64,000 nucleotides of DNA from Methanofastidiosum sp. (GTDB taxonomy: Archaea > Methanobacteriota_B > Thermococci > Methanofastidiosales > Methanofastidiosaceae): assembly GCA_040771805.1 (NCBI GenBank), contig JAXGZJ010000001.1:830796-894795 (forward strand). Direction: 5' to 3'. The notes under the pieces were generated by a model, which was not told the origin of the DNA, searched no databases, and saw only the letters and a list, made by a program, of their open reading frames with translations. How positions within the stretch are numbered: the first letter of the stretch is position 1; each line of letters opens with the position of its first letter. Positions 5,415 through 53,061 of this stretch are shown here, in pieces. The position numbers were made by a program, and so were the translations under genes.

Positions 5415-6323
5415 TTATTTCATTCCTAATATTTTTTTTGGATTAGTTATAGCCATCGTTTTTAATGCCTTTTCTGAGATGCCTTCTTTATTTAACAAGT
5501 TCATATATGTTTCAAGACATTCACTTGATGAAGGATTTTTTATTTGGCCTGCGTCAGAAGAGATTATGCAGTGTTCATAGCCTACCTCTTCAATATCTTT
5601 TTTTATTGTTTTAAGAGGATAGTCTTCTGGATGATCTCTATCTAGCCACATAACATAACAGTGCTCAATATAAGCTCCTTTTAATGCAAGTTCTTTTTGA
5701 ATTTCAATTGGCATATTGATATCTCTTTGCATTGGGTGAGTAACGATTGTGGGAATGCCCATTTTTAAAGCCTCTTTTGCTAGAACATAGCTTTCTTGCC
5801 ATGAAAGGTGTCCTGTTGCTAGAATACAATTATTTTCTTTTATTGCTTTAAGAACTCTAATACACTTTTCAAATAATTTAGAATTCCAATCTGTAACTTT
5901 TATGGCTTTAAGTTCAGATTTTAGTCTTGGCTTGAATTTTGGATCTCTTACCCACTCTGGGGGTATTTCATACTGACTATGATTTTTCAACAAATGATTT
6001 TCTGCATGTATTGTGGGAAACCACACTATTATTGGTGCACCTTTTGACATTGTTGCTGAAGCATATATTGCACTTGGATTAAATCCTCCCATGAAATAGT
6101 TTAAAGTAATTGAACCTATTAAAAAAGGAAATTCTGATTTTTTTTCAATTGTATTTATTGCGGATATTGTTGGAAATGCATGAGATTTTAATGCTATTCC
6201 AGTAATTTTTCCTTTTTCATTTTTCAAAAGGCTTTCAACTGTATCCTTTCTTGGAAGAATATCTGGGCCTATATGATAATGCATATCTATTGCATCTTTT
6301 ACTATTGAAGGAATTCCGGACAT
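5415..6323 (-). CDS. Metal-dependent TIM-barrel hydrolase (Amidohydro_2-like)
   Basis: N-terminal DMHYH metal-binding motif and C-terminal IISSDAG aspartate motif; stop overlaps the start of the upstream gene. Confidence 0.5.
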   Translation of the reverse strand: MSGIPSIVKDAIDMHYHIGPDILPRKDTVESLLKNEKGKITGIALKSHAFPTISAINTIEKKSEFPFLIGSITLNYFMGGFNPSAIYASATMSKGAPIIVWFPTIHAENHLLKNHSQYEIPPEWVRDPKFKPRLKSELKAIKVTDWNSKLFEKCIRVLKAIKENNCILATGHLSWQESYVLAKEALKMGIPTIVTHPMQRDINMPIEIQKELALKGAYIEHCYVMWLDRDHPEDYPLKTIKKDIEEVGYEHCIISSDAGQIKNPSSSECLETYMNLLNKEGISEKALKTMAITNPKKILGMK

Positions 6324-36377: not shown

Positions 36378-37928
36378 TTAAAAAGGTACTTTCAGATTAT
36401 ACTTCTTTCTATTTTCTATTTTCTTTTTGCTCCTGTTCTTCTTAATCTTTGAAAGTTTTTTTACTATTTCTAAATCAAGAGGGATCTTATCTTCCTTGCC
36501 TATCTCTATGTAACCTTCATTAGCCGCAGCTTCGAATACCTTTTTGCCTATTTCAGTTCGCACTATAACAGTATTCCATCCTTCTGGAGCCCCAATTGAT
36601 CCAATTGAAATGTCAGAAAGTTCGGAAGTAAAGTCAGGGCAAATTGAACAACTCTCTTGCTCATATTCCCTTACTACATCTATAGGTATTTTTTGGATAT
36701 CCCCAGAAACTGAATAAATAGTGTAATTGCCTGCACCTATATCAATTTTGTACGTATCTTCGGCTCTTATTTCCCCTAACTCTTCCATCATTTTTATCAT
36801 TGCATTGTATCTAAAATTATGGGTACAAAATAATCCAATTCTAAGAGAAATTTTATCAACTACACTTCTAAGGGATAGGGGGTATATTTCAAGTTTCCTA
36901 ATTGCTTGGTGGACACATGGGAGTCCAACTATAGCTATGTTTTTAAGATAGTTAGAAGTTGCTGCATCTTTAAGTAAATTTAATGTTGGGCAAAGATTGT
37001 ATGTTGTCCCAGTTGTTTGGAGTAGTTCATCATAGTTTGTTACTATGGCAGATCTTGCAAGCCAGTATTTTTCTTTATCCTTGCTGCCTGTTAAAATACC
37101 ATCAATTATTCTTGAATCAAGGCAGTAATTCATAAGTGCAGTTGTAGCCCCGCCACCTTGTGCGCGTTTTAATATTTCCTGATTAACAGCTCGAACTGTA
37201 TATACTGAAATATATTTTCCAAGATATTCGTCTGTAGATGTGCTTTCTCCTTTAAAGATAGTTTCATTTATGTAATCTAGAGGCATATAGCTTCTTGGAC
37301 ACTGGAATCTACATTCTCCACATTTTACACATATTTCGTCTCTTAAGACAGGTTTACCTTCTATGTCAGATAATGCAAGTGTAGGACATACAGCTGCGCA
37401 AAGCCCACATGAGATACATAAAGCCCTTTGTGTTATGTATCTAACATTCACTTCTGAATTTTCCTCAATGTTAGTAAATGCTTGAAGGTACAACTCATCT
37501 TTTTTCAAGAAAGCATCAAAGAATTTTTCAATGATCTCAGGGCTTGGAGGGCATCCTGGTATTGCATAGTCTACTTTTATTATTTCACTAACTGGTAAAA
37601 ATGCATCAGTCTCCGGCATAGGCATTTGATTCCCTGCAGAATGTACTAATATTCCTGTAGTTACGGCACATGCCCCTAGGGCTGCAACTTTCTTTGATTT
37701 CTGTCTAATCTCTGTTACAAGCTTCATGTGTCCCTTTTCAATAGTTCCTACTGCTCCTTCAAATACCGCCAAATCTAATTCCTCTGGGATTTCTCTAGCA
37801 TCCATTACCAAAGGATAATATTTTACATCATAATCATTAAGAAATGAAATGATATTGCCCGTGTCCAAATGAGATAAAAGGCATCCGGTGCACGAAGCTA
37901 ACTGAAACACCCCAATTTTTGGTTTCAT
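36378..37928 (-). CDS. frhGB: Fused [NiFe]-hydrogenase small subunit (FrhG-like) and F420-binding beta subunit (FrhB-like)
   Basis: N-terminal small-subunit motif ASCTGC...PGCPP, two ferredoxin motifs (CISCGLCAAVCP, CVKCGECRFQCP), then FrhB-like QGGGATTALM...GLPCVHQA...CSICPDF. Confidence 0.7.
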   Translation of the reverse strand: MKPKIGVFQLASCTGCLLSHLDTGNIISFLNDYDVKYYPLVMDAREIPEELDLAVFEGAVGTIEKGHMKLVTEIRQKSKKVAALGACAVTTGILVHSAGNQMPMPETDAFLPVSEIIKVDYAIPGCPPSPEIIEKFFDAFLKKDELYLQAFTNIEENSEVNVRYITQRALCISCGLCAAVCPTLALSDIEGKPVLRDEICVKCGECRFQCPRSYMPLDYINETIFKGESTSTDEYLGKYISVYTVRAVNQEILKRAQGGGATTALMNYCLDSRIIDGILTGSKDKEKYWLARSAIVTNYDELLQTTGTTYNLCPTLNLLKDAATSNYLKNIAIVGLPCVHQAIRKLEIYPLSLRSVVDKISLRIGLFCTHNFRYNAMIKMMEELGEIRAEDTYKIDIGAGNYTIYSVSGDIQKIPIDVVREYEQESCSICPDFTSELSDISIGSIGAPEGWNTVIVRTEIGKKVFEAAANEGYIEIGKEDKIPLDLEIVKKLSKIKKNRSKKKIENRKKYNLKVPF

Positions 37929-38401
37929 TGTGAATCCTCCATAAAAGAAATAACAATTTTTTGGACTTTATTAATGGCATCCATAACGTTTTGGCTCATT
38001 TTAAGTTTCATATTGTCGGGATTGACATCTCCTTGAACTAATATTAGCTTAACATTAGAAGAAAAATTATTTATTTCGTGAGAAATAGCCATGCCATGTG
38101 ATGATTTAATGAAGTCTTCATAAGCTATATTTTTTCCATCCAATACCAATACATCTCCAAGCTTTCCTTTAAAATCCCCACAGTCAATTATGTATAGATT
38201 CTTAATTTTATGTTTCGAGTTATTAATAAGATTTAAAAAAGGAGATATTCCAGAGCCACAATCAATTACTGCAAGATTATTGTATTTAGTCTCAATTTTT
38301 TCATCTTTTAGCTTTCTAATAAATTCTGGCCCAAACCCATCATCACCAAAAAGGGGATTACCACACCCCAAGATAAGATTCTCTTTTGTTAGGTACTTCA
38401 T
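37925..38401 (-). CDS. frhD: Hydrogenase maturation endopeptidase (FrhD/HycI-like)
   Basis: ILGCGNPLFGDDGFG motif; internal Met start at 38401 chosen over the track start at 38467. Confidence 0.65.
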   Translation of the reverse strand: MKYLTKENLILGCGNPLFGDDGFGPEFIRKLKDEKIETKYNNLAVIDCGSGISPFLNLINNSKHKIKNLYIIDCGDFKGKLGDVLVLDGKNIAYEDFIKSSHGMAISHEINNFSSNVKLILVQGDVNPDNMKLKMSQNVMDAINKVQKIVISFMEDSQ

Positions 38402-39633
38402 TATAAGTACCTCCTTTCGATAATCTTGCCTTCTATATCTTTGACAACTATACAATGAGTTGCACAATCAAGGCAAGGATCAAAAGATCTCATTATGACT
38501 TCAGCATACTCTTGTGGTGAACCTTCTATAGTCTTTCCTATTGTTGGTATATTCCATGTTGTTGGCGATATTATTTTATAGTCTTTCATAATCCCATTCT
38601 GATCTGTTTTTGCCATATGAATTAACGTACCTCTTGGTGCTTCATAGACGCCTATGCCTTCCCCTTCCTTAACATTTATGTGTTCAGGTTTTGTCTTGCC
38701 ATTAACATCTAGCTGATCAAGTAATTCCTCAGCCCTATACACCATGACTAACATCTCCCTAGCCCTAGCAACATTGATATATAATGCAGAGTCCCCGGAA
38801 AATCTTTTGAATTTAATGAATCTTGCTCTTGGGCCAGTTTCAACTGTTTCTCCATAGTATAGTGGTATCATTGTATTGGTAGTTCTACCTTCTTCGTCTT
38901 TTCCATAAAATCTAGATGGAATTACCTCTCTGATTGCCTCAATATTAATTTCTTTTCTATCGCCATAGGTCATATGGGTGGCGAGAATACTTGAGTTAGA
39001 GGTTCCTATATTATTTGGAAGATTTTCGAGTTTCTTCTCTATTGATTCTATAATCAAATCTTTTTGCAAATGTGCATTTTTCTCATATTTTCTAACAAGC
39101 CTATACAAGCTTGCAGCCGCTCTTTTGCTAATGTTAGTACGAAATCCCCCAACACAATAATTAGAAGGATGTATCGCTTCTCCACCTACAATATCTTTCA
39201 TTTTTTGTCCAATTCTTCGTAATTCTTGGATTCTTTCAATTGATTCGTTTTTTATTTTTTCATCATCAACTATATCGTTAAGAATAAGAAACTGATGAAG
39301 CGCATGGTCTTGCATTTTACTTGCTAAACCTAAAATCTCTCTCAATATCAAGGCGTCTTCAGGTATTTCCAGATCAAAAGCACCCTCAATCGCCTGACAT
39401 GACGCTTCTGCATGGGATATTGGACATAATCCACATATTCTCATTGAAGCTCTAGGGGTAAATTCATAAGTTCTTCCCAAGGTCAATGACTCGAAACTTC
39501 GTACCATTGTTGTCGATATGTAATATGCCCTCTCAACTATCCCTTCGTCATCTACATGAAGAACTAATTTCGCATGTCCCTCGTGCCTAGTTGTTGGATT
39601 AAGGATTACAGTTCGTTCCCCTGTGCTTTCCAT
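38401..39633 (-). CDS. frhA: [NiFe]-hydrogenase large subunit (group 3, FrhA-like)
   Basis: N-terminal RICGLCPISH and C-terminal DPCLDCATH Ni-Fe ligand motifs. Confidence 0.8.
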   Translation of the reverse strand: MESTGERTVILNPTTRHEGHAKLVLHVDDEGIVERAYYISTTMVRSFESLTLGRTYEFTPRASMRICGLCPISHAEASCQAIEGAFDLEIPEDALILREILGLASKMQDHALHQFLILNDIVDDEKIKNESIERIQELRRIGQKMKDIVGGEAIHPSNYCVGGFRTNISKRAAASLYRLVRKYEKNAHLQKDLIIESIEKKLENLPNNIGTSNSSILATHMTYGDRKEINIEAIREVIPSRFYGKDEEGRTTNTMIPLYYGETVETGPRARFIKFKRFSGDSALYINVARAREMLVMVYRAEELLDQLDVNGKTKPEHINVKEGEGIGVYEAPRGTLIHMAKTDQNGIMKDYKIISPTTWNIPTIGKTIEGSPQEYAEVIMRSFDPCLDCATHCIVVKDIEGKIIERRYL

Positions 39634-41121: not shown

Positions 41122-41344
41122 GAACTATGCATTTATGTTGTAATTTATAAACTTTGTTAAAACGTATGCTTTATTGTATAATTTATATTGAAATGATGGT
41201 ATCTCTGAGATCCTTATACTAAGATCATAGTATTCTGCATTATTCTAGAATTAGAAGAATCATTAAAACTATTTTTTTTAAGTATTTTAAACAAAGTATG
41301 TCCAAACTCAGAAAAATAGATTGGGCATTAGTTTGTAAAAAGAG

Positions 41345-41419
41345 TGCCGCGGGCCGGATTTGAACCAGCGGAATACCAGATCTTCAGTCTGGCGCCCTCC
41401 CAGGCTAGGCGACCGCGGC
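41345..41419 (-). tRNA. tRNA-Phe (anticodon GAA); CCA not encoded
   Basis: Hand-folded cloverleaf: 7-bp acceptor stem GCCGCGG/CCGCGGC, D-stem GCCT/GGGC, anticodon stem CCAGA/TCTGG with loop CTGAAGA, T-stem GCTGG/CCGGC with loop TTCAAAT. Confidence 0.85.
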
Positions 41420-41607
41420 TTAGCTAATAAAAAGTGAATCTTTTGGATAATATATAAACTTTTCCCATAATATTATTTTGCAGTATAATCCTATCCAAGT
41501 GATGCTTATTCCTAATTTGCACTAAGCATTGTATGAGATTTAATCTTTATCGTCAAAGTATGCAGCAAGTTAAATATGCACATATTAGCTTTGATATTTC
41601 AAGCAAC

Positions 41608-42381
41608 TCAAGAAATAGATGGAACTATAACTTTCATGTCTAAAATTGATTCTATTGAACATATATCCCCATATAATAATTTTAGTATGTCGTTATCCAT
41701 TACTTCTTTTGCATTCCCATATCCAATCAGAGCTCCTTTGTCAATAAAAGCCACAGTATCACAAAACCATGATACATAGTTTGGATCATGTGTACAGACC
41801 ACTACAGTTTTACCTTTAGATGTCAATAGCTTTAGAGTTTTCCAGATATTTATTTGATTTCTAAAATCAAGGGCCGAAGTAGGCTCATCTAGCAACATTA
41901 TAGGGGTGTTTTGTGCAAACGATCTAGCTAAAAGAACCAACTGTCGCTGTCCTCCGCTTAGCTCAGTGTAATACCTATCGGCAATATTAGTTATGCCGAT
42001 AGTATTCATTGAGTATTCTGTAAAGTCTAAATCAATTTTTGAAGGATTAAAAAATCCTCCTAGATGTGGAGTTCGTCCCATCAAAACTATTTCTCTTACT
42101 TTAAATGGAAAAGGCGGCTTATGTTCCTGTGGCACATAAGAAATAATTTTAGCCAATTCTTTGGGATTAAAATTATTCAGTACTTCTCCATTTATCAGTA
42201 TATTTCCATCATTAGTTTTATTGAGGCCAGCTAAACATTTGAGCAAGGTAGACTTACCAGAACCGTTAGGACCAAATAGGGCGCATAATTTTCCCTTTTC
42301 TAAATTAAATGTGATATCCTTTAATACTTTCAAAGTTCCGTAATTAAAGGATAAATTATTTATTTTAATCATTTCTATCAC
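41608..42381 (-). CDS. ABC transporter ATP-binding protein (FepC/BtuD-type)
   Basis: Walker A GPNGSGKST, signature LSGGQRQ, Walker B MLLDEPTS. Confidence 0.85.
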   Translation of the reverse strand: MIEMIKINNLSFNYGTLKVLKDITFNLEKGKLCALFGPNGSGKSTLLKCLAGLNKTNDGNILINGEVLNNFNPKELAKIISYVPQEHKPPFPFKVREIVLMGRTPHLGGFFNPSKIDLDFTEYSMNTIGITNIADRYYTELSGGQRQLVLLARSFAQNTPIMLLDEPTSALDFRNQINIWKTLKLLTSKGKTVVVCTHDPNYVSWFCDTVAFIDKGALIGYGNAKEVMDNDILKLLYGDICSIESILDMKVIVPSIS

Positions 42382-43394
42382 CCAAAGTAAAGATTTCTAT
42401 TTTTTCTAACTAGAATAATCAAATATGGTGCGGCAATTACTGAAGTCAAAATACTGATAGGAATCTCACCAAAAGTTAAAGTTCTGGCTAAAGTATCACA
42501 TATCACTAAAAATAATCCTCCCATTATAGCGGAAGCAGGTATCAAATAACGATGATCTGGGCCGATTGTCATTCTTGCCATATGAGGAATAACTAGTCCC
42601 ACCCAAGCAATTATCCCAACAGTTCCAATAGCTATTGAAGTAATAAACGTAGACAGTACTATGCTTACAGCCTTTACCTTTTTGACGGATACTCCCAGAG
42701 ACTGAGCTTCCTGATCTCCCATTGTCAGCACATTTAACTTCCAAGCGAGACTCCACAATAGAATAAAGGATATAGTTATTAAAACAGAAAGTAGTCCGAC
42801 ATCACCCCACTTCGCAGTATAAAATCCACCCATCAACCAAAATACCAAATCACGTAACTCTCTAAAACCTGCGGTCATTTTTAAATATGAAAGGCCTGCA
42901 GAAAATATAGCACTCACAATTATTCCAGAGAGTATAAGATTAATCAACGGCGTTTCCTTTTTAACTGTGGCAAGAGAATATGCAAAAATCATCGCAATCA
43001 TCCCGAACACAAATGAAGTTAGTTGCATGGATAAAAAGCTTAAATGAAGAACAATTGATATTGCAGCCCCAAATGCAGCAGCGGAAGATACGCCCAAAAG
43101 GTATGGCTCCACAAGAGGATTTCTGAATACTCCTTGATAAGTTGTTCCTGCAGTTGCTAGTGCTACGCCAACAATGACGGATAAGAAGATTCTAGGAAGC
43201 CTTATCTGCCACACAACAATCTCATTGTCTAACGATGGAACTGTTCCTATTCCTATTTTATAGATAATTGCTTGAAATACATCTAATATGGGAATGTTAA
43301 AAGATCCTCGAGTTACGGCTACAACCATCCCTAATATAAGAAAAATTAAAGAGGTAATTAGGAATGTGCTTTTTGTCTTGTTATCTGAAATCAT
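42378..43394 (-). CDS. ABC transporter permease (FecCD/BtuC family)
   Basis: ~10-TM permease with FecCD-like glycine-rich helices; overlaps the ATPase gene start. Confidence 0.85.
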   Translation of the reverse strand: MISDNKTKSTFLITSLIFLILGMVVAVTRGSFNIPILDVFQAIIYKIGIGTVPSLDNEIVVWQIRLPRIFLSVIVGVALATAGTTYQGVFRNPLVEPYLLGVSSAAAFGAAISIVLHLSFLSMQLTSFVFGMIAMIFAYSLATVKKETPLINLILSGIIVSAIFSAGLSYLKMTAGFRELRDLVFWLMGGFYTAKWGDVGLLSVLITISFILLWSLAWKLNVLTMGDQEAQSLGVSVKKVKAVSIVLSTFITSIAIGTVGIIAWVGLVIPHMARMTIGPDHRYLIPASAIMGGLFLVICDTLARTLTFGEIPISILTSVIAAPYLIILVRKNRNLYFG

Positions 43395-43406
43395 TCAATA
43401 CCTCCT

Positions 43407-44252
43407 CTATTCCACATGCTGCCATTTAATTTGGACATAAACTGTATCATCATCCCATATGTATTTTCCATTTGATTTATTGAATTTTGTTTCTATATAC
43501 TCAGCAAGATATTTGTCATTTTTAGAATCAGATATTCTTAGACGGAGTTTTAAGTCAGATATTGCTTGATCAATGCTATCATATATTTTTGGAAATGATG
43601 TACCCTTTAGCACAGTAATATTTGGAGATCTTCCCATATCATAGAGAACATTATAAATAACATTACATTTAGGTGAGGGTGTATAGTTGCTGCCATATAT
43701 TTTTTGATACAAATCCATGTACAACTTCTCCCAAGAAGTGACCCCAGAAAACCAATACAGGATAACTTCTTTATTGGAGCAATCTTCCATTTTAAGTAAT
43801 GACTCCTTAATATTTTGCATAAGAAGAGAATAAGAAGCTATAACAATGTCATGTTTTTCTATTTTAGCTGTGTCAAAATTCTCCCATTTCGATTGAAAGA
43901 TTTCGATGTTTGTCAATCTTTCTTCTACGATATGTTTTTTTAGAAGATCAATCATTGATTGAGAGGGCTCAACAACAGTTACCTTCTTCACATATCTTGC
44001 TAAAGGAACTGCTAATACCCCCGGGCCAGCGCCTATATCAAGCACAGAGTAATTTTTATCAAAATTAAGTTCTTTTGCCCTTTTTTCCCCATCTTCCTTT
44101 ATTAATTTTGAGTTATCGTATGCTTCAGCACGTCTTTTATCATTATAATAATTCCTTTCATTTTCATTTTCTGGAAAAGAAAAATTGATTGTTTTATTCC
44201 AAATGGAATTCCAATCAATATAGTTTGACAAAGTTCCCCGATTAAAAGTCAT
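43407..44252 (-). CDS. Class I SAM-dependent methyltransferase embedded in the ABC importer operon
   Basis: SAM-binding motif I VLDIGAGPGVLAVPLA; sits between the binding-protein and permease genes. Confidence 0.65.
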   Translation of the reverse strand: MTFNRGTLSNYIDWNSIWNKTINFSFPENENERNYYNDKRRAEAYDNSKLIKEDGEKRAKELNFDKNYSVLDIGAGPGVLAVPLARYVKKVTVVEPSQSMIDLLKKHIVEERLTNIEIFQSKWENFDTAKIEKHDIVIASYSLLMQNIKESLLKMEDCSNKEVILYWFSGVTSWEKLYMDLYQKIYGSNYTPSPKCNVIYNVLYDMGRSPNITVLKGTSFPKIYDSIDQAISDLKLRLRISDSKNDKYLAEYIETKFNKSNGKYIWDDDTVYVQIKWQHVE

Positions 44253-45393
44253 TTGAGTCCATCCAGTCTAAAAGTTGAATTTCCTTTAGTCTCTGTGCTT
44301 GATTATCGTTTAATCCATAGAGCTCTTTGTGGTAGTCATTAACCCATTTGTTAACCTTTATATCACTGAATTTTTCAGGATATACAGTTTTTGCAGATAT
44401 AAGTAATATTGTAGGATAGTCAAGTTTAAAGTCTCCCCACCAAGTCAAAAGGCCAAAAGAACCTATTCTTCTATTTTTTACAGCGTTGACATTCTGCAAT
44501 GGTTTATATTTAGGGGCTGTACTTAATATGTTGATATCAGGCAATATAGAGTTGGTAGCAAGTATGATCACATCTGGATTCATGGTAATTATCTGCTCTG
44601 CTGACATTAATTGTGATTTGGATTCCCCATATACATTTTTTATGTTGCATATTTCTTCTGCAAACTTTGCGTCTCCGTAATTCTTACCCCAAACGGCACC
44701 TATACTATCATCTGTTTTCAGTCCAATATACATCACAGATGGCTTTTCAGAATCTTTGATGTCCTTAGTTCTATTATATACCATGTCCACATATTTCTTA
44801 GTAATGTCATGTATTTCTTTGGCACGTTTTTCCTTATTAAATACTTTTCCTAATATTATAATTCCTTCATATTGGGTATTCATTGTAGGATTGCTATACG
44901 CTCCGGGGGTATTAATTACTACAATGGGTATTTTAAGTTCATTTTCAATTCTATCCATTGCTTCTTTAGTTATTTCATTGTCTTTAATATATTCTGAGTT
45001 TGCCCAAAGGACTAAATCAGGTTTTACAGATATTAGAGTTTCAAAATTGAACCCCCCAAAGGTATAGCCTACATTTGGAAGCTCTATTATCTTAGGAAAT
45101 AGATATAAACTGTCCCTATCTTCTGCTTTTTCATTTTCTGAAGATAACATTCCACCACTTGCAACTATTTTATCTTGGACGCCCAAAGCAACTATGTTTT
45201 GTGTTATGAAGCCTTTATCAACAATAACAACTCTTTGAGGGTCAGAGGGAATCGTCACCGTCACTCCTCTCATATCAACTATTTCTTTCATGGCAATCTT
45301 CTGTGGTGAACTGGTATTTTGTACACATCCTAAAAAACTAAATGTTAAAAATAAAATCACCATAGTAATCAAAATATTATTTTTGTTTTTCAT
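44242..45393 (-). CDS. ABC transporter substrate-binding protein (cluster A-II/BtuF/FepB-like, probable lipoprotein)
   Basis: Signal peptide with lipobox-like FSFLGC; periplasmic binding protein 2-like. Confidence 0.75.
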   Translation of the reverse strand: MKNKNNILITMVILFLTFSFLGCVQNTSSPQKIAMKEIVDMRGVTVTIPSDPQRVVIVDKGFITQNIVALGVQDKIVASGGMLSSENEKAEDRDSLYLFPKIIELPNVGYTFGGFNFETLISVKPDLVLWANSEYIKDNEITKEAMDRIENELKIPIVVINTPGAYSNPTMNTQYEGIIILGKVFNKEKRAKEIHDITKKYVDMVYNRTKDIKDSEKPSVMYIGLKTDDSIGAVWGKNYGDAKFAEEICNIKNVYGESKSQLMSAEQIITMNPDVIILATNSILPDINILSTAPKYKPLQNVNAVKNRRIGSFGLLTWWGDFKLDYPTILLISAKTVYPEKFSDIKVNKWVNDYHKELYGLNDNQAQRLKEIQLLDWMDSNDF

Positions 45394-45520
45394 AGAATCT
45401 CCTTAATTTTTAGTGTTATTATAGTAGCACTAATTTAGAAAACGTGTTATTAATTATTTATAAAGTTTATGGTTTAATATATAGTTAAAGGACTATTTAC
45501 TCATCGAAATATTTATATAC

Positions 45521-45541
45521 TTGGATGGTGACGCCATCCAT
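45521..45541. promoter_or_regulatory. Palindromic candidate operator, copy 1 (TTGGATGGTGACGCCATCCAT)
   Basis: 19 of 21 positions identical to the perfect palindrome at 54857..54877; preceded by TATA-like ATTTATATAC and followed directly by the ATG at 45542. Confidence 0.45.
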
Positions 45542-45685
45542 ATGAACAATAAATGTATTATCTGTAAGTGTGAATTAAATAAGAGGACTTATATTATCTG
45601 CGAAGATTGTTTTGAAAAATGCATCTCTCAATTGGAATTAACTGATTTTCACAAAAATAGAGAGGCTATCTTTATTATGGATTAG
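45542..45685 (+). CDS. Small zinc-ribbon protein, 47 aa (not in ORF track)
   Basis: ATG...TAG ORF encoding MNNKCIICKCELNKRTYIICEDCFEKC... with CxxCKC-x9-CxxC; promoter-like TATA and palindrome just upstream. Confidence 0.35.
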   Translation: MNNKCIICKCELNKRTYIICEDCFEKCISQLELTDFHKNREAIFIMD

Positions 45686-45771
45686 GATGATAAAAGTAAT
45701 ATAAACAATGAAAAAGTTAATAAATAAACTATAATTCTTACCACAATGCAAAACACAAGAGGTAATTACCA

Positions 45772-45906
45772 TTGAAGAATGAAATCACGATAAATTTTCC
45801 AAAGGACATCAGAGAGTACTGCCCAAAATGTAAGTGTTACCTATATCCTGTAAAAGATCATATTTGCTACTTCTGCAAAAGTAAAACTATTCCCCATAAA
45901 GAATAA
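45772..45906 (+). CDS. Small zinc-ribbon protein paralog, ~44 aa (TTG start; not in ORF track)
   Basis: ORF encoding (M)KNEITINFPKDIREYCPKCKCYLYPVKDHICYFCKSK... with the same CxxCKC-x9-CxxC spacing; AGAGGT SD-like element 8 nt upstream. Confidence 0.3.
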   Translation: MKNEITINFPKDIREYCPKCKCYLYPVKDHICYFCKSKTIPHKE

Positions 45907-45912
45907 AAATAA

Positions 45913-46473
45913 TTAAGAATTTTTAAAAGAATTCTCTTCAAATTCCTTATGAATTTGCTGCATCCATTCAGGTATAGATATTTTGTCCTCAGGGTAAAAG
46001 TTTCTAACATACGGTTTGATATCAACTACAGGACTACCATCGACCGCATCCAGCCCCGTAACCTCTAAAACATTCCCTCTTATACCATGCAAACGGACAA
46101 CAGTCATAAGTATAGGATTTGGTCTTGCAGGGCTACATGTGGCAAATATACCTACCTTTGAAAAACATTCTCTTCCCATAGGATGTACTTTTGTCAAAGA
46201 TCGACTTTGCTCTGGAACTTTATGGGCCCAGTATAAAATTATAAGATGGGAATATTTTTCAACCCCTTCAAGGATATCTATGATATCATTATCAATAATA
46301 ATTTCTGATATTTCCTCATTGATTTGACGAATTTGTTTCATATTGGCTTTGTTCTGTTCCTTCATCTTTATTCCCTCATTTCCGGCAACAAGGGAGGGTT
46401 CATTATTGTTATTTCTTACAATACCAATCGGCCTTACTATCAAATTTCCTGCATTTTTATTATCTTTAATCAT
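45913..46473 (-). CDS. TsaA/YaeB (TrmO-like) family protein
   Basis: VRPIGIVRN N-terminus and RPNPILMTVV...VTGLDAVDGSPVVDIKPY core motifs. Confidence 0.6.
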   Translation of the reverse strand: MIKDNKNAGNLIVRPIGIVRNNNNEPSLVAGNEGIKMKEQNKANMKQIRQINEEISEIIIDNDIIDILEGVEKYSHLIILYWAHKVPEQSRSLTKVHPMGRECFSKVGIFATCSPARPNPILMTVVRLHGIRGNVLEVTGLDAVDGSPVVDIKPYVRNFYPEDKISIPEWMQQIHKEFEENSFKNS

Positions 46474-46513
46474 GTTTCAACCTTCTAACTCTATAGATAG
46501 ATTTTTATCAAAG

Positions 46514-47611
46514 TTATCTTATTCTTATTCCGTCCCCAGTTAATTTATTATATCTGCTCTTTGAACAAGGATAGCAATAATTTCCTCCGTTGCTTTTAGA
46601 TATCCTTGTAGCCATTACGTTTTCCTTACAACAATCACATAAAATGCTATCATATATTGGGGCATATTCTGGGATATCTGCCTTCACTTTTTTTATTGAA
46701 AAAAGGCTATCAAAGTCCATTTTAAGCATGTTAAACGAGACCTCTTTTCCATATTGTTTAAATAAAGAATAATCTTCTTCGTTTCCAGCCCTATCTCTTA
46801 CTACTTTATTAAATAATTCAAAATACTCAGGAAAGTTTTTTTCAAGACCATTTCTGTAATCAGGATTAACAGAAACTCTTATCCCATTGCCATCTCTTCT
46901 AGATAGTGTTACGGCATTTTTTCCAAAATCCCGATAAATAAGGGCATTATTTCCAAATGTACATCCAGTAACATATTGGACGCCATCTGACATGCAATTA
47001 TTTGCTTCAACAATAGCGATTACTTCTTCCATCCCATCTGAAATTTCTTTGATTTCATTCATCAGATAAGCGCTTGCCCTAACTCCAAGGGATAATCCCG
47101 GGCAATAGTGGCCATGAATTGTTCCTGCCGTAATGAGTAGTTTTTCTAAATCATTCTCAGCAATGTACCTAGTTATTTCTGATCTTGGATTGTTTTTTAG
47201 GTAGCTTAGATTTTCAGCTTCTTGACCCTTTTCATCAAGAAAAGCAGAGTACGGTTTTATATCAATAACAGGTGTTCCATCGATTGCGTCAAGTCCCTTT
47301 ACTAGAAGCTCGTTACCTTTTCTTTCCAATAGCTCTACCGTAGTTAGGCCTATATTTGTCGGCCTTCGTGGGCTTCTAGAAGCAAAAACACCTTTTACTT
47401 CGCCCCCATACCTAGGGCCAATAAGTTCAAAATCTTTAGAAAGATGAAAAACAAACATTACCTGGAGATATCTGCTCTCCTCTATCTTATATAGTCCATC
47501 TTCAAAATCTTTGTCTACTATGATTGTACTCTCTGTCTTTCTTAATATATTTGGGTCTACTTGCTCCCTAAAATTATTTTTTACTGTTCCTATCTTTTTA
47601 ATATGCTCCAT
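46514..47611 (-). CDS. Fusion protein: N-terminal TsaA/YaeB-like domain, FmdE-like domain, C-terminal zinc ribbon
   Basis: RRPTNIGLTTV...KGLDAIDGTPVIDIKPY (TsaA-like); HGHYCPGLSLGVRA (FmdE-like); CDCC...CYPC C-terminal cluster; start uncertain (track start 47680). Confidence 0.6.
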   Translation of the reverse strand: MEHIKKIGTVKNNFREQVDPNILRKTESTIIVDKDFEDGLYKIEESRYLQVMFVFHLSKDFELIGPRYGGEVKGVFASRSPRRPTNIGLTTVELLERKGNELLVKGLDAIDGTPVIDIKPYSAFLDEKGQEAENLSYLKNNPRSEITRYIAENDLEKLLITAGTIHGHYCPGLSLGVRASAYLMNEIKEISDGMEEVIAIVEANNCMSDGVQYVTGCTFGNNALIYRDFGKNAVTLSRRDGNGIRVSVNPDYRNGLEKNFPEYFELFNKVVRDRAGNEEDYSLFKQYGKEVSFNMLKMDFDSLFSIKKVKADIPEYAPIYDSILCDCCKENVMATRISKSNGGNYCYPCSKSRYNKLTGDGIRIR

Positions 47612-48374
47612 TATTTTTCCTCCCCACTGGAATAACAAACGGGTAGCCATCGTGCTCCTTAATATAGACATCCACACCATATACTTCTTTAATTAATTTT
47701 GGAGTAATTATATCGTGGCCTCCAACTGAATCAATCATTCCCCCTTTTAAAAAGATGAATTTGTCTGAAAATCTTAGGGCGGAATTAATATCATGCATTG
47801 TCATTATAACTGATACATCATGTCCATCCACAATTTCTGATAAGAGGTACAGTATTTCCTGCTGATTTTTAAGATCTAGACTTGATGTAGGTTCATCCAA
47901 TAATAGTATTTTTGGCTCTTGAACTATTGCTCTGGCTATTCCGACTTTTTGTAATTCTCCACCACTTAACTCATCTAAATACCTTAAAGAGAGATCTTCC
48001 ATGTTTAATTTTTTCATGGCAGAGTTAACTAATGAAATATCCTTGTTAGATACATCCCACTTTATATGGGGTTTCCTACCAAGTAAGATGGCATCAAATA
48101 CAGTTATCCTTACAGTTTCGTTTCTTTGTGGAACATAACCTAACTTCTTTGCTATTTCTATTCTTTTAATATTCATAATATCTTGATTCTCTACCAGTAT
48201 ACTTCCACCTTGTGGCCTTAGAATTCTATTTATGCATTTGAGAAGTGTAGTTTTGCCCACGCCATTTGGGCCTAATATACTTAAAATTTCATTCGACTCT
48301 AAATTAAAGTCTATTTGATTGAATATTTCTTTATTTTTATAACTAAATTTTAAATTAGATATTTCAAGCATCAT
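47598..48374 (-). CDS. ABC transporter ATP-binding protein (FepC/BtuD-type), second system
   Basis: Walker A GPNGVGKTT, signature LSGGELQ, Walker B LLLDEPTS. Confidence 0.85.
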   Translation of the reverse strand: MMLEISNLKFSYKNKEIFNQIDFNLESNEILSILGPNGVGKTTLLKCINRILRPQGGSILVENQDIMNIKRIEIAKKLGYVPQRNETVRITVFDAILLGRKPHIKWDVSNKDISLVNSAMKKLNMEDLSLRYLDELSGGELQKVGIARAIVQEPKILLLDEPTSSLDLKNQQEILYLLSEIVDGHDVSVIMTMHDINSALRFSDKFIFLKGGMIDSVGGHDIITPKLIKEVYGVDVYIKEHDGYPFVIPVGRKNNGAY

Positions 48375-49441
48375 CTTCTTCCTCCTTTTATCAATAGGAA
48401 GATAAAAATTGGTGCACCCATAAATGCTGTTAAAATTGCTACAGGTAAAACATGTGGGGCAACTATCAATCTGGCTGCAGTATCAGAAAGTGACAATAGT
48501 ATACCTCCCATTAGGATAGACCCTGGTATTAGAAAACGATTGTCGTCACCGATTAAGATTCTTACTATATGCGGACATACAAGCCCTACAAATCCAATAA
48601 CACCAAGGAAAGCTACAATAACTGCAGTAACAAGAGAGGAAACAATCATCCCTATTAGGCGAATTCTTGTGACATCTACGCCTAAACCTAAAGCAGTGTC
48701 ATCACCTGCGTCAATTGCATTATAGTTCCATCTATTTATGAAAAAGTATATTGCGGCCAATATTACTACAATTGATATTATGCTTAATTCTCGCCAATCG
48801 GCTCTTGCAACATCACCAAAAGACCAAAAAACAACAGCTGCTAACTGCACATCATCGGCAAAGAATTGAAGAAACATTGTTCCTGCTGTAAATAGGGACG
48901 ATAAAGCTACTCCTGCTAAGATCATTACTTCAGGTGAAGCTTTTTTCATATGGGCTATTCCCAATATGAACGCAGTTGCAAGTAGACAAAAGATAAATGC
49001 AACTATAGTTGTGGTATATGGATTATTGATTACTATGGCATCCATAGCTCTACTACGCATAGTTCCTGTACCCAAAATCATCACAGAAAATGCTGCACCA
49101 AATGCCCCGGCGTTAGAAATTCCTAGGGTAAATGGAGATGCCAATGGATTCCTTAAAATCGATTGCATTGCAACACCCGCAACACCGAGTCCAATCCCAG
49201 CAGCTACTCCCGTTAAAGCCTGAGGTAAACGAATATTCCATATAATTGTATGCCAAGTACTAGACTGGGCATTACCAATTAAAACTTTAAAAACCTCAGG
49301 TAATGGTATGTTTACTGCCCCCACAGAGACAGAAAATGCAATTGAAAATATTAAGAATAATAAACTACCAATTAAAAAAATCATTTTTTTCCATACATAA
49401 TTAAGATATCCTTCTGGCAATTCCGATTCATTTAAGTGCAT
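48371..49441 (-). CDS. ABC transporter permease (FecCD/BtuC family), second system
   Basis: Polytopic FecCD-like permease; overlaps the ATPase gene start. Confidence 0.85.
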   Translation of the reverse strand: MHLNESELPEGYLNYVWKKMIFLIGSLLFLIFSIAFSVSVGAVNIPLPEVFKVLIGNAQSSTWHTIIWNIRLPQALTGVAAGIGLGVAGVAMQSILRNPLASPFTLGISNAGAFGAAFSVMILGTGTMRSRAMDAIVINNPYTTTIVAFIFCLLATAFILGIAHMKKASPEVMILAGVALSSLFTAGTMFLQFFADDVQLAAVVFWSFGDVARADWRELSIISIVVILAAIYFFINRWNYNAIDAGDDTALGLGVDVTRIRLIGMIVSSLVTAVIVAFLGVIGFVGLVCPHIVRILIGDDNRFLIPGSILMGGILLSLSDTAARLIVAPHVLPVAILTAFMGAPIFIFLLIKGGRR

Positions 49442-49470: not shown

Positions 49471-49491
49471 ATGTCTAGGTTTACTAGACAT
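49471..49491 (-). terminator. Intra-operon hairpin followed by a U-tract, between binding-protein and permease genes
   Basis: ATGTCTAG-GTTTA-CTAGACAT (8-bp stem) followed on the coding strand by TTTTATTTTTTT, then the GGAGG RBS of the permease. Confidence 0.35.
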
Positions 49492-50591
49492 CATATATCT
49501 AATTTTTTAAAGCCTATATTATTGAACTCAGAGTTTAATTCACTAAACACAGCTTTACCAAATAAAAATGTATAAATTTCGTCTGCTTTTTTAACTGGAT
49601 CTATATCTGAGAATTTTTCTGGATAAATAACTTTTCCGACGAAGTAAGCATCAGCTAAAACTGATCCTTGATTTGCATTATACCAATTATAGGGTATCAC
49701 TGCGTAGACTTCTCCAGATTTTACGGCACTTAATTTTTTATATGCTGAGTCCTTTTTCAATTCATCAATTGCTGTATCTGTTTCTAATTGTATTGTAGCA
49801 ATATCAACAAATAGTATGTCCGGATCCCACTCTACTATCTTTTCTTTAGCAACTTCTGTTCCTTGGCTCCCCAATGCTGAAGCAACGTTATTTGCATTTA
49901 CAAAGATAAATGGGGGGTAACCTGGCTCTGTTGAATGTAAACCGTGTGGGCCTGCCCTCGCCACTCCACCAATGTATACTGATTTTCTCTGGGATTCAGG
50001 TACATCCTTTGTCCTGTTGTTTAAATCTTCAATCCCCTTATCAAAGAAGGATATTACTTCTTCTACTCTAGCTTCTTTGTTCATTACTTTTGCCATAATT
50101 CGCCAGGTTTTATACATTTCACTCCTATTTTTACCAAGATCTCCATAGTTTAATGCAACTACTGGAATTCCAGTTTTAGTTTGAAGTTTATCGGCATCTT
50201 CAATTGTTGTTTGAACTTTGAATATTATTTGGGGATTCAAAGCAATTATTTTTTCGGGATCGTCTTTTCCACGAAACTCTCCAAATATTGGGTAGTCTCT
50301 AAATTGTCTATTTGCAATTGCATATGGTCTTGCATCAAACTTAGAAGTTCCTTTTTCAATGTCATCTACACCGACTATTTTATCGTGAGCTTGTAGATAA
50401 GTTAGGTACCTTAGGCACCCTGAACCTGAACAAATTACTTTAGTTGGATTTACAGGTACAGTTACTTCTCGTCCGAGCGAATCGGTTATTTTCATTGTTT
50501 TTTGTGAAGTATCCGTTGTGTTGCTAGTGCATCCTGCTGACAAAAACATTGCAGCTACTAACACTGCAATAATAAAAATATTTGCACACAT
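49491..50591 (-). CDS. ABC transporter substrate-binding protein (BtuF/FepB-like lipoprotein), second system
   Basis: Start placed at internal Met (MCANIFIIAVLVAAMFLSAGC, lipobox-like); track ORF extends to 50729. Confidence 0.7.
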   Translation of the reverse strand: MCANIFIIAVLVAAMFLSAGCTSNTTDTSQKTMKITDSLGREVTVPVNPTKVICSGSGCLRYLTYLQAHDKIVGVDDIEKGTSKFDARPYAIANRQFRDYPIFGEFRGKDDPEKIIALNPQIIFKVQTTIEDADKLQTKTGIPVVALNYGDLGKNRSEMYKTWRIMAKVMNKEARVEEVISFFDKGIEDLNNRTKDVPESQRKSVYIGGVARAGPHGLHSTEPGYPPFIFVNANNVASALGSQGTEVAKEKIVEWDPDILFVDIATIQLETDTAIDELKKDSAYKKLSAVKSGEVYAVIPYNWYNANQGSVLADAYFVGKVIYPEKFSDIDPVKKADEIYTFLFGKAVFSELNSEFNNIGFKKLDI

Positions 50592-50939
50592 TTTTTTATT
50601 TTTGATAAAAACACCTCCGCCAAATAGAATAAGTATTCTATTTATAAGTATTACGTTTTTTTGATACGTGCTACTATTTTTATAAAATCTATCTTTAATA
50701 ACACTTGATAAATTTTTCAATTGCAGCATTGATTCTGTTTCTAGCTTTACTTGATATACTAATTGTCAAAATTCTTTGTAAAATCTAAGTTATTTTCCTT
50801 CTCTATTTCTGAGTAAGGAGGATATAATTAATCAATGCAGTTATAGTCTTTTTCTATAAATATATGCTTTGTTGAATAATTCCAAACAAACGACAATTAT
50901 CTCTAACTTGCCCTTTCTTTACCTTTAGCTTTACACTAG

Positions 50940-51720
50940 CTGTTGCAGTTGGTCATCAGCAGAAATTCATCATCACTTCCTTTTGTGCCATGTCAAATCG
51001 TTTGGCGGTAGTTCCTTCGCCAAATGAGCGCTTGACCGCAGAGAAATATGATTCTATGCGCCACCGCTTGTCATATTCGTATTTCTCTTTCCATGAAATC
51101 TAGCCAATCTTTTTCACTTCCCACATTGACTTAGCACGCAGAGGCGACCTAAGGGGCGTGTTGAGACATTTTTTTGTATCTTTATTATTGAACTGCATTC
51201 TTTTTAGCGGCAATATCAACCATGTTTCTTGTGTCGTAGGCTCCGTCTGCTATAAGAACTTTGAAAGCTACCCCATCAGCTAAAAAATGCTCATTTAGCT
51301 ATCGTGGGCATCTCTATCTGTAACAACTATACCGATTAGTTTTCCTGTCTTAGCGTCGATGGCAGCATGCGCCTTTAGGTAGTTCTTATTTTTCCCGTAG
51401 AGGTAGTTTATCCAGCTCCCGGCATCAGTCATCTTAAATCCGGTGCTGTCGCTTACCACAGTAAGCTCTGAAACATCTTCTATCACCTCAAGCTCAAATT
51501 TCATCTGAAGTATTCTCCGTCAGATGGTGGCGTAGTCTGCCGACTTGATCTTAGGTGAATACTTGGATATAGCTTGAAGAAAGCCTTTGGTCTACCTACA
51601 CCTTAGCCCGCAGACTGTCCTTACAGTTGTTACAAATCTGATGAAAGATTCCTGGTAGGGGATATGATCTTCTGACCTTATCATTGTTCATTAGAGCTAG
51701 CTCTTTGTTCAATATATCGT
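50940..51720 (-). mobile_element. Remnant of an IS4/IS5-family insertion sequence; ends not defined
   Basis: GC-rich patch in an AT-rich background; transposase motifs found in three different frames. Confidence 0.5.
50956..51692 (-). pseudogene. IS5-like DDE transposase, disrupted by frameshifts and stops
   Basis: Reverse-strand translations give AIDAKTGKLIGIVVTDRDAHD, KVLIADGAYDT and YDKRWRIESYFSAVKRSFGE in different frames. Confidence 0.55.
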
Positions 51721-51744
51721 TTAAAAAATCAAAAGATTGATAAA

Positions 51745-53061
51745 CTACCACAATGACTTGCTTAGTATTTCTCTACTGTTAATAACTCTGCATTCTATAA
51801 CAAGGGAAGTTTCATTGACAAATGATTTTATTCGTTTTTCAGTATGTCCTACCATCCCTCCGCTTGTAAGGATAAGGCATTGTTTTCCAGACAATGAAGT
51901 CAAAATAGATTTATCAATAACGTTGGAAGTTACATCAAGGCTAATATTGTCCTTGCTACAAATAGATTTGCTTTTAGAGCCCATTGCTCCCACATATTGG
52001 ATCTTATATTCACCGATAATATTCTGGACTTCTTGAAAGTCATAAAAATCAGTATTATAGATATATATTCTTCCAATATTCTGATGATTGTGGAACTCAA
52101 TAATTGCATTGTTATCTTGGGACTTATAAAAAACAGTTCCCTTCTTAAAGTAGTGATCATTTGGAACATCGTTAAACTCAACTAGATCCCCAACTTTTTT
52201 GTCTGAAGAAATCTTCCTCCACTTTAAATTAGAAGGTTTTAAGAAACCGACTAATTCCAAAAGATTTTTCGGAGTTTTGCCGTCTGTGGCTAAATTTCTA
52301 TTTACAAGTTCATTATATATCTGAATTATAAGGGGAGTTTTAAGATGTGTTTTTTTAATTAGTTCCTTTTCTTTAAACAGCGTATCTGGAGTTCCCTGGC
52401 CAACTATCTTTCCGTCAGCCATTAAATAAACGTAATCAGACCATTGATAAGCCAGCTCGATATCATGGGTAGAAATTATTATTGTTTTGCCGTAGCTATT
52501 GAGCTCATTTAGTATGTCCATAACTTCATTGGCGCCTCTAGGGTCAAGATTAGACAGTGGCTCGTCCAAAACGATGATGTCAGGTTCCATTACAAGTATG
52601 CCTGCTATTGCAGCTCTTTTCTTTTGGCCACCACTTAAATGATGAGGGGATTTTTCTTTTATATGGAGGAGATCAACATAATCCAAAGCCAATTCAGTGT
52701 ACTTTTTAACCTTATCTTCATCCCATCCAAGATTCATAGGGCCAAACGCCACGTCCTGATAGAGAGTTGGTGCAAAAAGTTGATCATCCGGATTTTGGAA
52801 TACCATCCCAACTCTTTTTCTGATTTCAACTAGATTTTTACTGCTATATTTCATTTTTTCTCCATTAAATATAATCTCTCCTTCAGTTGGGGCATGAATC
52901 CCATTAAACATTAAAAAAAGAGTGGATTTTCCAGCTCCGTTTGGGCCTACAAAGGATATTTTTTTACCTGCCTCTATTCTGATATTTACCCCCTTGAGGG
53001 CCTCAAACCCATCTCCATAAGTATATCTGACGTTTTTAGCTACAATGATAGGATTAGTCAT
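51745..53061 (-). CDS. cbiO: Cobalt ECF transporter ATPase CbiO with a ~150-aa C-terminal extension
   Basis: Walker A GPNGAGKST, signature LSGGQKKR, Walker B IVLDEPLS; 438 aa, longer than a typical CbiO/EcfA. Confidence 0.85.
   Translation of the reverse strand: MTNPIIVAKNVRYTYGDGFEALKGVNIRIEAGKKISFVGPNGAGKSTLFLMFNGIHAPTEGEIIFNGEKMKYSSKNLVEIRKRVGMVFQNPDDQLFAPTLYQDVAFGPMNLGWDEDKVKKYTELALDYVDLLHIKEKSPHHLSGGQKKRAAIAGILVMEPDIIVLDEPLSNLDPRGANEVMDILNELNSYGKTIIISTHDIELAYQWSDYVYLMADGKIVGQGTPDTLFKEKELIKKTHLKTPLIIQIYNELVNRNLATDGKTPKNLLELVGFLKPSNLKWRKISSDKKVGDLVEFNDVPNDHYFKKGTVFYKSQDNNAIIEFHNHQNIGRIYIYNTDFYDFQEVQNIIGEYKIQYVGAMGSKSKSICSKDNISLDVTSNVIDKSILTSLSGKQCLILTSGGMVGHTEKRIKSFVNETSLVIECRVINSREILSKSLW

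Follow-up and report, generated by a model that had tools for sequence, protein, structure and literature searches.

The 64,000-nt stretch of the Methanofastidiosum sp. contig JAXGZJ010000001.1 analysed here (positions 830,796 to 894,795 of the forward strand, referred to as the window and numbered from its first letter) contains a five-gene operon, designated operon A, in which genes for a binding protein, a FecCD permease and an ATPase are followed, in the order of transcription, by a gene fusing a TrmO_N barrel to an FmdE domain and by a TrmO_N-only paralogue (Table 1). We propose, with a probability of roughly 60%, that operon A encodes a NikR-controlled Fec/Btu-type (Niu-like) importer of nickel or a nickel chelate, and that both TrmO_N proteins serve as its cytoplasmic accessories. 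Direct evidence was obtained for how the domains are arranged, which residues are conserved, how the genes are linked in the operon, their association with genes for NikR and nickel enzymes, and the sequences of the operators. Both TrmO_N genes are labelled TrmO by NCBI and the fusion is labelled formylmethanofuran dehydrogenase subunit E by JGI; these labels are probably both wrong.

Pfam searches detected in operon A the complete Peripla_BP_2, FecCD and ATPase gene set of Niu/Fec-type importers. They also bore out the original prediction, made from the letters alone, that two TsaA/YaeB-like proteins close an ATP-binding cassette (ABC) importer operon, and that the upstream protein of the pair is extended by an FmdE-like domain and a C-terminal cysteine cluster. 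The open reading frame (ORF) 46514-47680 matched FmdE (E 3.9e-35, 121 bits) and TrmO_N (E 1.2e-28), and carries the motif HGHYCPGLSLGVRA and a C-terminal CxxC...CxxC cluster, and the downstream ORF matched TrmO_N only. The ATPase gene overlaps with the permease gene at its start and with the fusion gene at its stop, the latter as had been predicted; the proposed fusion start at 47680 probably does not hold, as it marks only the longest ORF. Translation more likely begins at the ATG at 47611 (MEHIKK...), with GGGGAGGA just before it; the overlap with the ATPase stop codon (47598-47600) is 14 nt. The gene calls of NCBI and JGI give the fusion as a 365-aa and a 378-aa form, respectively. For the binding protein, a likely start at MCANIF... 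and a lipobox-like LSAGC were recognized, and an ORF reaching as far as 50729 would include promoter elements.

In an alignment of 38 fusion sequences, residues H166, G167, H168, C170, C206, D209, Q212 and C217 were invariant, T215 of the FmdE D/Q/T motif (D209, Q212, T215) was nearly so, and the four zinc-ribbon cysteines C325, C328, C346 and C349 were likewise invariant. H166, H168, C170 and C206 correspond to the His15/His17/Cys19/Cys55 metal site of solved FmdE proteins, a His-His-Cys-Cys site that was seen in two FmdE crystal structures and that held mixed Zn/Ni in one crystal, nickel resin having been used in the purification (PMC2954224). As to the catalytic residues of TrmO, S-adenosylmethionine (SAM) is held by Gln22, Arg82, Asp111 and Lys122 in AF0241 and by Gln25, Arg92, Asp125 and Lys136 in the Escherichia coli enzyme (PMC4132733). 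The fused barrel keeps three of the four AF0241 ligands, with R79, D108 and K119 in place of Arg82, Asp111 and Lys122, and an equivalent of Gln22 was not conserved among the aligned fusions. An AlphaFold model of the fusion (pLDDT 85) retrieved in Foldseek 2GVI (FmdE plus zinc finger, TM 0.75) and 2NV4 (AF0241 with SAM, TM 0.73), and nothing else.

The standalone paralogue carries the motifs TCSPARPNP and VHPMGR and a C-terminal IPEWM helix. Across 27 homologues H76, H97 and C113 were invariant, and C113, within TCSPARPNP, sits in place of the SAM-carboxylate Arg82 of AF0241, so that the critical arginine kept by the fused barrel is replaced here by a cysteine. The VRPPR motif is changed to VHPMGR, the SAM-ligand Asp and Lys are kept, and the Gln is absent. 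Only the C-terminal 48 barrel residues of the paralogue align with the fused barrel (58% identity). Judged by these residues, the paralogue is a member of a separate, well-conserved TrmO_N subfamily, referred to as Cys type, and the two TrmO_N modules of operon A are not equivalent. The Cys-type family is present in Methanocella, Methanothrix, Methanoculleus, Methanofollis, Desulfobacca and others, and was examined in 80 metagenome loci, where recurrent orders were TrmO(Cys)-FmdE-methyltransferase and FecCD-ABC-substrate-binding protein (SBP)-(methyltransferase)-TrmO(Cys), as well as within Nik/Opp-type operons.

A database search with the fusion yielded 1,379 homologues, and the 120 best that were listed were all full-length fusions with both Pfam domains. 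These 120 came from Asgard archaea, Thermoplasmatota, Bacteroidales, Spirochaetes, Halanaerobiales and Bipolaricaulota; methanogens and Thermotogae are carriers too, the fusion being reported in some Methanosarcinales, Methanosarcina, Methanolobus, Halanaerobium and Marinilabilia count among the carrier genera, and a scan of species-representative genomes gave more than 550 relatives. The original prediction had named two weaknesses, that the FmdE-like segment might not align to its family and that a frameshift might have joined two independent genes. The domain search confirmed the TrmO_N plus FmdE architecture, and a frameshift or artefactual joining was ruled out by the hundreds of full-length fusion homologues.

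Gene neighbourhoods were surveyed in 80 genome loci, whose ORFs were labelled with hidden Markov models built from Pfam-annotated genes, and linkage was counted in the 30 full-fusion loci with at least 4 kb of upstream sequence. A Fec-type importer lay within 6.5 kb of the fusion in 20 of the 30, and in at least 15 the fusion gene directly followed an ATPase gene, with gaps of −11 to +90 nt. nikR was present in 13 loci, and any nickel marker (nikR, hyp, lar, NiFe hydrogenase or NicO) in 16. Predicted NikR proteins tested by Pfam matched NikR_C in 10 of 10 cases and RHH_1 in nine of 10. The order SBP-FecCD-ATPase-fusion is kept across archaeal and bacterial phyla, often with nikR at the head or flank and with hyp, lar or NiFe-hydrogenase genes adjoining, a typical locus running nikR, an optional TonB receptor, SBP, FecCD, ABC and fusion. 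Among the loci annotated by Pfam, L005 has nikR, then SBP-FecCD-ABC-fusion, then larC-larB-larE; L007 has NiFe hydrogenase-hycI-hypCDEAB-fusion-nikR-hypF; the Heimdallarchaeon L008 has SBP-FecCD-ABC-fusion followed by nikR; L002 has SBP-FecCD-ABC-fusion-TrmO_N-DUF1007-NicO; and in L004 (Fuchsiella) the fusion is followed by a Nik/Opp-type importer. Shorter relatives, namely FmdE with a zinc ribbon (~240 aa) and an Arg-type TrmO_N alone (~135 aa), occur in like neighbourhoods, and near Fec-type and Nik/Opp-type importers the Cys-type paralogue is repeatedly accompanied by FmdE-only proteins and a class I SAM methyltransferase. From this co-occurrence, FmdE, the Arg-type barrel, the Cys-type barrel and the class I methyltransferase are predicted to form a modular accessory set of metal importers. 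Longer variants, a 404-aa FmdE protein, a 393-aa Cys-type TrmO_N protein and 365-377-aa TrmO-like proteins without HGHxC, were observed in the metagenome loci L094, L099, L106 and L145 and point to further domain combinations in this set.

The NikR consensus of delta-proteobacteria is GTGTTAC-N13/14-GTAACAC, and a reversed form, GTAACAC-N13-GTGTTAC, has also been described (PMC545781). With up to two mismatches, the former was found at 18 sites in 1.09 Mb of loci, compared with about six in shuffled sequences; 11 of the 18 were intergenic, intergenic bases making up only 14.5%, and most directly preceded fusion, FmdE, SBP or nikR genes. A position weight matrix was built from 13 NikR-box-like sites upstream of homologous operons (training sites 15.7-33.8 bits). 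Its best match in the 64-kb window (17.4 bits) was the candidate operator of operon A, and the third-best, with two mismatches to the reversed NikR signal, was that of operon B, a second importer operon described below. The reversed consensus with up to three mismatches matched the window three times (0.95 expected), two of these matches being the promoters of operons A and B. In two Methanofastidiosa relatives (L172 and L173; protein identities 80% and 84%), canonical boxes with one mismatch each occupy the orthologous spot, directly 5′ of the TATA box. Because the left half-site has drifted, NikR regulation may be weaker in the window strain. A perfect palindrome with 10-bp arms lies between the TATA-like box and the ribosome-binding site of operon A; its core, GAATACTTATTC, is kept in L173 and partly in L172, and it is possibly a second operator or a transcription-start element. 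As the palindrome is the sole copy in the window, it was ruled out as a repeated operator.

In the proposed mechanism, the fusion, which is likely dimeric, would receive the imported cargo, and the solvent-exposed His2Cys2 site of its FmdE domain would take up Ni(II). The fused TrmO_N barrel, with its predicted grip on the amino-acid end of SAM retained, would either methylate a chelator or ligand atom via SAM, thereby freeing the metal, or hold an amino-acid-type ligand. For the Cys-type paralogue, in which His and Cys reshape the SAM pocket, a role as a further metal- or ligand-binding partner is envisaged, possibly in a pair with the fused barrel, and nickel would be handed on to users such as NiFe hydrogenases, Lar and F430 synthesis. 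That these operons repeatedly contain another SAM methyltransferase, unrelated to the barrel, speaks for genuine methyl-transfer chemistry and falls short of proof. A more specific version, in which the TrmO_N barrel and the class I methyltransferase methylate a nickel chelator or ligand atom and so break the complex for capture by FmdE, with the Cys-type barrel acting as a metal binder, is doubtful; if true, such methylation-driven metal release would represent an RNA-methyltransferase fold repurposed in a way that has no known precedent in metal import.

Several observations weigh against nickel import. The operon A box is degenerate, with four mismatches to the canonical and three to the reversed form, neither window box is in the canonical inverted orientation, and no nikR gene was found within the 64-kb window. 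About one-third of the full-fusion loci had no importer or nickel marker nearby. In a PDB comparison the binding protein was not detectably closer to Helicobacter pylori NiuB than to siderophore binders, its best solved relative being 2ETV, the uncharacterized Thermotoga maritima TM0189 (E 1e-79). The nickel in the 2GLZ crystal may stem from the purification resin (PMC2954224). The loop with the SAM-binding arginine was modelled at low confidence. Gln22 is lost, and SAM use by either barrel is a prediction; nickel as the substrate, for operon A as for the whole family, is predicted from gene context and putative operators, and every biochemical step is likewise a prediction.

The main rival, which we consider improbable, is a BtuFCD-like importer of corrinoids or cobalt chelates, whose accessories would handle cobalamin or cobalt, for instance by remodelling or corrinoid methyl chemistry. 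Operon A is located immediately downstream of the cbiA-to-cbiJ and cbiMNQO genes, and its ATPase and permease score comparably against BtuC/BtuD and corrinoid-transporter models. In the bacterial locus L006 a cluster of TonB receptor, SBP, FecCD and ABC genes, the end of which is about 430 nt upstream of the fusion gene, is headed by a cobalamin riboswitch (positions 1-243, 86 bits); both this and the cbi adjacency also count against nickel. An energy-coupling factor (ECF) transporter and a DUF4430 protein, which we take to be linked to cobalamin, are encoded upstream in the Methanofastidiosa relatives. However, the adjacency to cbi genes is not a conserved one: in the window the two are parted by a decayed transposase, and the relatives have other neighbours. 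Of 20 bacterial and archaeal loci scanned for cobalamin riboswitches, L006 alone had one, and B12 is thus not the dominant theme. The nikR genes, the frequent hyp, lar and NiFe genes, and the canonical NikR boxes before the orthologous operons of L172 and L173 speak for nickel instead. A sensory role, in which the FmdE core and zinc ribbon sense a metal or ligand and regulate transcription or gate the transporter, the TrmO_N barrel being a sensor of SAM or an amino acid, is rather unlikely and partly overlaps the nickel-importer proposal. From the treble-clef zinc finger, those who solved the FmdE structures proposed a part in transcriptional regulation or signal sensing (PMC2954224), Methanosaeta has FmdE fused to a transcriptional regulator, and the chaperone SlyD is reported to control H. 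pylori nickel uptake via NiuBDE (PMC7840056). On the other hand, no recognized DNA-binding domain was found by the Pfam search, nikR is already present at many loci, and cargo handling accounts better for the strictly conserved, exposed His2Cys2 site and for the methyltransferases found alongside.

The two current labels correspond to two further alternatives. Under the TrmO label, both would be class VIII SAM methyltransferases whose target is tRNA (m6t6A or another base) or some other macromolecule, and their position beside an importer would be incidental or regulatory; this is very improbable. Both do score above the curated 93.25-bit cutoff of the NCBIfam model TIGR00104 'TrmO' (fusion 102.7, paralogue 108.6), an 'equivalog'-level model that is probably a source of systematic misannotation in archaeal genomes; the Arg82, Asp111 and Lys122 equivalents are kept in the fused barrel, and AF0241, the closest solved relative, was crystallized with endogenous SAM (PMC4132733). 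However, no Pfam match to the TrmO_C/DPRxxY domain was obtained in the fusion or the paralogue, where the barrel is followed by FmdE or a short helix, and in E. coli TrmO mutation of DPRxxY abolishes activity, as does R92A alone (PMC4132733). In addition, m6t6A was undetected in any archaeal tRNA analysed by 2014 (PMC4132733). The tRNA methyltransferase label is therefore unsupported, given the incomplete SAM-ligand set, with Gln22 lost from the fusion and the critical arginine an invariant cysteine in the standalone family, the absence of DPRxxY, the lack of detected m6t6A and the tight operon coupling to importers across phyla. That the fusion is a genuine FmdE, i.e. an accessory subunit or chaperone of a Mo/W formylmethanofuran dehydrogenase, is effectively refuted for the window organism. 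It has in its favour the family name, the JGI annotation and the discussion of a TrmO_N-FmdE fusion in an Fmd context by Padalko et al. 2024 (PMC11237513). Methanofastidiosa, however, are reported to lack the genes of conventional CO2 reduction, most carriers are non-methanogens, e.g. Bacteroidales, Spirochaetes, Halanaerobiales and Asgard archaea, and only 13 of 208 FmdE-family genes adjoin fmd genes (PMC2954224), so the Fmd-subunit label is unsupported as well. The partners in operon A are ABC importer genes and not fmd/fwd catalytic subunits, and no fmd/fwd genes were found in the Pfam-annotated neighbourhoods, the models used for the remaining loci containing no Fmd/Fwd families. Taken with the importer gene order, the nikR neighbours and the NikR boxes, these results uphold the original suggestion of a role other than tRNA methylation and narrow that role to nickel.

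Operon A shares the Peripla_BP_2, FecCD and ATPase architecture of NiuBDE of H. pylori and CeuE-FecDE of H. mustelae, and its Bacteroidales relatives additionally have a TonB-dependent receptor; NikR control is predicted for operon A. Nickel transport by operon A is inferred, and the window binding protein shows no specific similarity to the binders of these importers. We know of no TrmO_N or FmdE accessory genes with NiuBDE or CeuE-FecDE. TrmO/TsaA/YaeB (known from E. coli; structures 2NV4, 7BTU and 1XQB), a class VIII tRNA m6t6A37 methyltransferase, has its β-barrel fold in common with the fusion, whereas the operon A proteins lack the DPRxxY domain and stand in a genomic context of metal import, not translation, in addition to the residue changes described above. 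The FmdE family (PF02663; 2GVI, 2GLZ and 3D00) shares with the fusion the alpha+beta core, the FHGHxC...C metal site and the treble-clef zinc finger; unlike in the solved proteins, the window core is fused to a SAM-binding barrel and its context is nickel-specific (nikR, hyp, lar). An Fmd enzyme is not reported for the Methanofastidiosa lineage. A SAM-using enzyme beside an importer of Ni/Co/Zn chelates is also found in CntKLM-CntABCDF of Staphylococcus aureus, which serves as an analogy, and some fusion homologues adjoin SBP_bac_5 (Nik/Opp/Cnt-type) importers, as in Cnt systems. The folds of the Cnt metallophore enzymes and of TrmO_N/FmdE are unrelated. Unlike in Cnt systems, no exporter, dehydrogenase or racemase genes were seen at the labelled fusion loci, and a single barrel domain is unlikely to act as a metallophore maker. 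At present operon A is best described as a metal ABC importer with cytoplasmic accessories and not yet as a demonstrated new mechanism.

Nickel is a limiting factor in methanogenesis, hydrogen metabolism and further processes of anaerobes. The archaeal nickel transporters recognized in a 2009 comparative survey were NikMNQO, NikABCDE and NiCoT only (PMC2667541). Most FmdE-family genes were already noted to adjoin metal-ion transporter genes by Axelrod et al. 2010, in whose list the PF01980 fusion appears among the architectures still lacking a structure (PMC2954224), and the TrmO_N-FmdE fusion was listed again in a 2024 fusion census (PMC11237513). Our search, which left subscription journals outside its range, found no report tying the family to nickel or NikR, or describing the Cys-type subfamily or the accessory set. 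A Nature 2025 proteome of M. marburgensis under nickel limitation reported induced transporters in detail too scant to link them to the fusion family. If the present proposal is true, a NikR-linked Fec-type importer with accessories would be a missing part of anaerobe nickel supply in many phyla, the archaeal YaeB/TrmO homologues, whose role has been open since 2014, would gain a testable function, and so would the FmdE family, a question dating from the 1990s. TrmO or Fmd labels can, moreover, distort metabolic reconstructions of uncultured archaea.

Table 1. Coordinates of operons A and B, their regulatory elements and the domains of the fusion protein in the window, with the aligned promoter elements of two relatives.
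Feature	Position	Strand	Remarks
Operon A
Peripla_BP_2 substrate-binding lipoprotein	49491-50591 (ORF extends to 50729)	−	Pfam Peripla_BP_2, E 3.3e-23
FecCD permease	48371-49441	−	Pfam FecCD, E 2.5e-87
ABC ATPase	47598-48374	−	Pfam ABC_tran, E 1.3e-33
Fusion protein, 365 aa	46514-47611	−	Pfam FmdE + TrmO_N
TrmO_N β-barrel of fusion	47228-47605 (~aa 3-128)	−
Helical linker of fusion			invariant P142-R143
FmdE core of fusion	46700-47119 (~aa 165-304)	−	invariant H166, H168, C170, C206
Treble-clef zinc ribbon of fusion	46565-46639	−	C325, C328, C346, C349
Standalone TrmO_N paralogue, 186 aa, Cys type	45913-46473	−	Pfam TrmO_N, E 2.2e-29
T-rich stretch TTATTTTTATTCTTT	45895-45912	−	right after paralogue stop codon, read directly
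Candidate NikR operator, operon A	50648-50674	−	GTAGCAC-N13-GTAATAC, directly 5′ of TATA-like TTATAAATA
Perfect palindrome	50622-50643		AAATAGAATA-ag-TATTCTATTT
Operon B
Second Fec-type importer with embedded class I SAM methyltransferase	41608-45393	−	Pfam
SBP	44242-45393	−
Methyltransferase	43407-44252	−
FecCD	42378-43394	−
ATPase	41608-42381	−
Candidate NikR operator, operon B	45424-45450	−	ATAACAC-N13-GTGCTAC (reversed), between TATA-like box and ATG
Aligned promoter elements
Window operon A			box GTAGCAC GTATCAAAAAAAC GTAATAC; TATA TTATAAAT
L172			box GTATTAC GAATATCAAATAC GTAACAC; TATA TTATAAAT
L173			box GTGTTAC GAATTTAGAAAAA GTAACAT; TATA TTATATAT

The window has a G+C content of about 33%, and the genes of operons A and B are all on the minus strand. 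The T-rich stretch following the paralogue is probably an archaeal oligo-T terminator that ends operon A, and about 520 nt without a same-strand gene lie downstream of it. This stretch between the operons contains two small plus-strand ORFs, 45521-45685 (54 aa) and 45772-45906 (44 aa), either of which may encode a zinc-ribbon-like product with two CxxC pairs. The methyltransferase of operon B gave only generic Rossmann-methyltransferase matches in the PDB comparison, and other genomes have members of its family next to FmdE, TrmO_N and importer genes. Further downstream of operon B an Frh-like NiFe hydrogenase is encoded, in which the genes of the NiFe large subunit and of a single 516-aa fused protein lie next to each other (36378-37928 and 38401-39633, both minus strand), the fused protein combining a hydrogenase small-subunit domain (Oxidored_q6), ferredoxin motifs and the N- and C-domains of FrhB.

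The two Methanofastidiosa relatives L172 and L173 both keep the SBP-FecCD-ABC-fusion order; the 186-aa paralogue is kept in L172, and the L173 contig ends before the paralogue position. A third relative, L001, is 96% identical to the window at the nucleotide level (L001 7795-10299 versus window 45506-47856 and 41340-41466). The fusion and the paralogue are retained there, of the ATPase gene only the final 260 nt remain, and SBP-FecCD and the whole of operon B are missing; L001 would be either a deletion or rearrangement variant or a chimeric assembly. An ECF transporter preceding the TrmO pair in L001 was considered as a native arrangement and dropped, as the ATPase remnant is present and L172 and L173 have the full operon. 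In all three relatives a DUF4430/S-layer-like protein and an ECF transporter (CbiQ, a double ATPase and an S component) are encoded upstream of the importer operon position (L172 340-4683, L173 1078-5427 and L001 3249-7597), a unit that may serve vitamin or corrinoid uptake.

Upstream of operon A the window carries a decayed transposase, cbiMNQO and the anaerobic cobalamin pathway. Broken frames resembling a decayed DDE transposase occupy 50900-51740 (ORF 51295-51504, minus strand), between cbiO and operon A; because the relatives have the ECF transporter there instead, a rearrangement probably occurred in this region. The adjoining CbiO-like ATPase (51745-53061, minus strand) has 438 aa, Pfam covering only its N-terminal ABC region and leaving about 230 C-terminal residues without a match. 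In L173 an 87-aa ORF with a CxxC pair (5582-5845) is located between the ECF genes and the NikR box and, judged by eye, is like a small winged-helix or FeoC-like protein.

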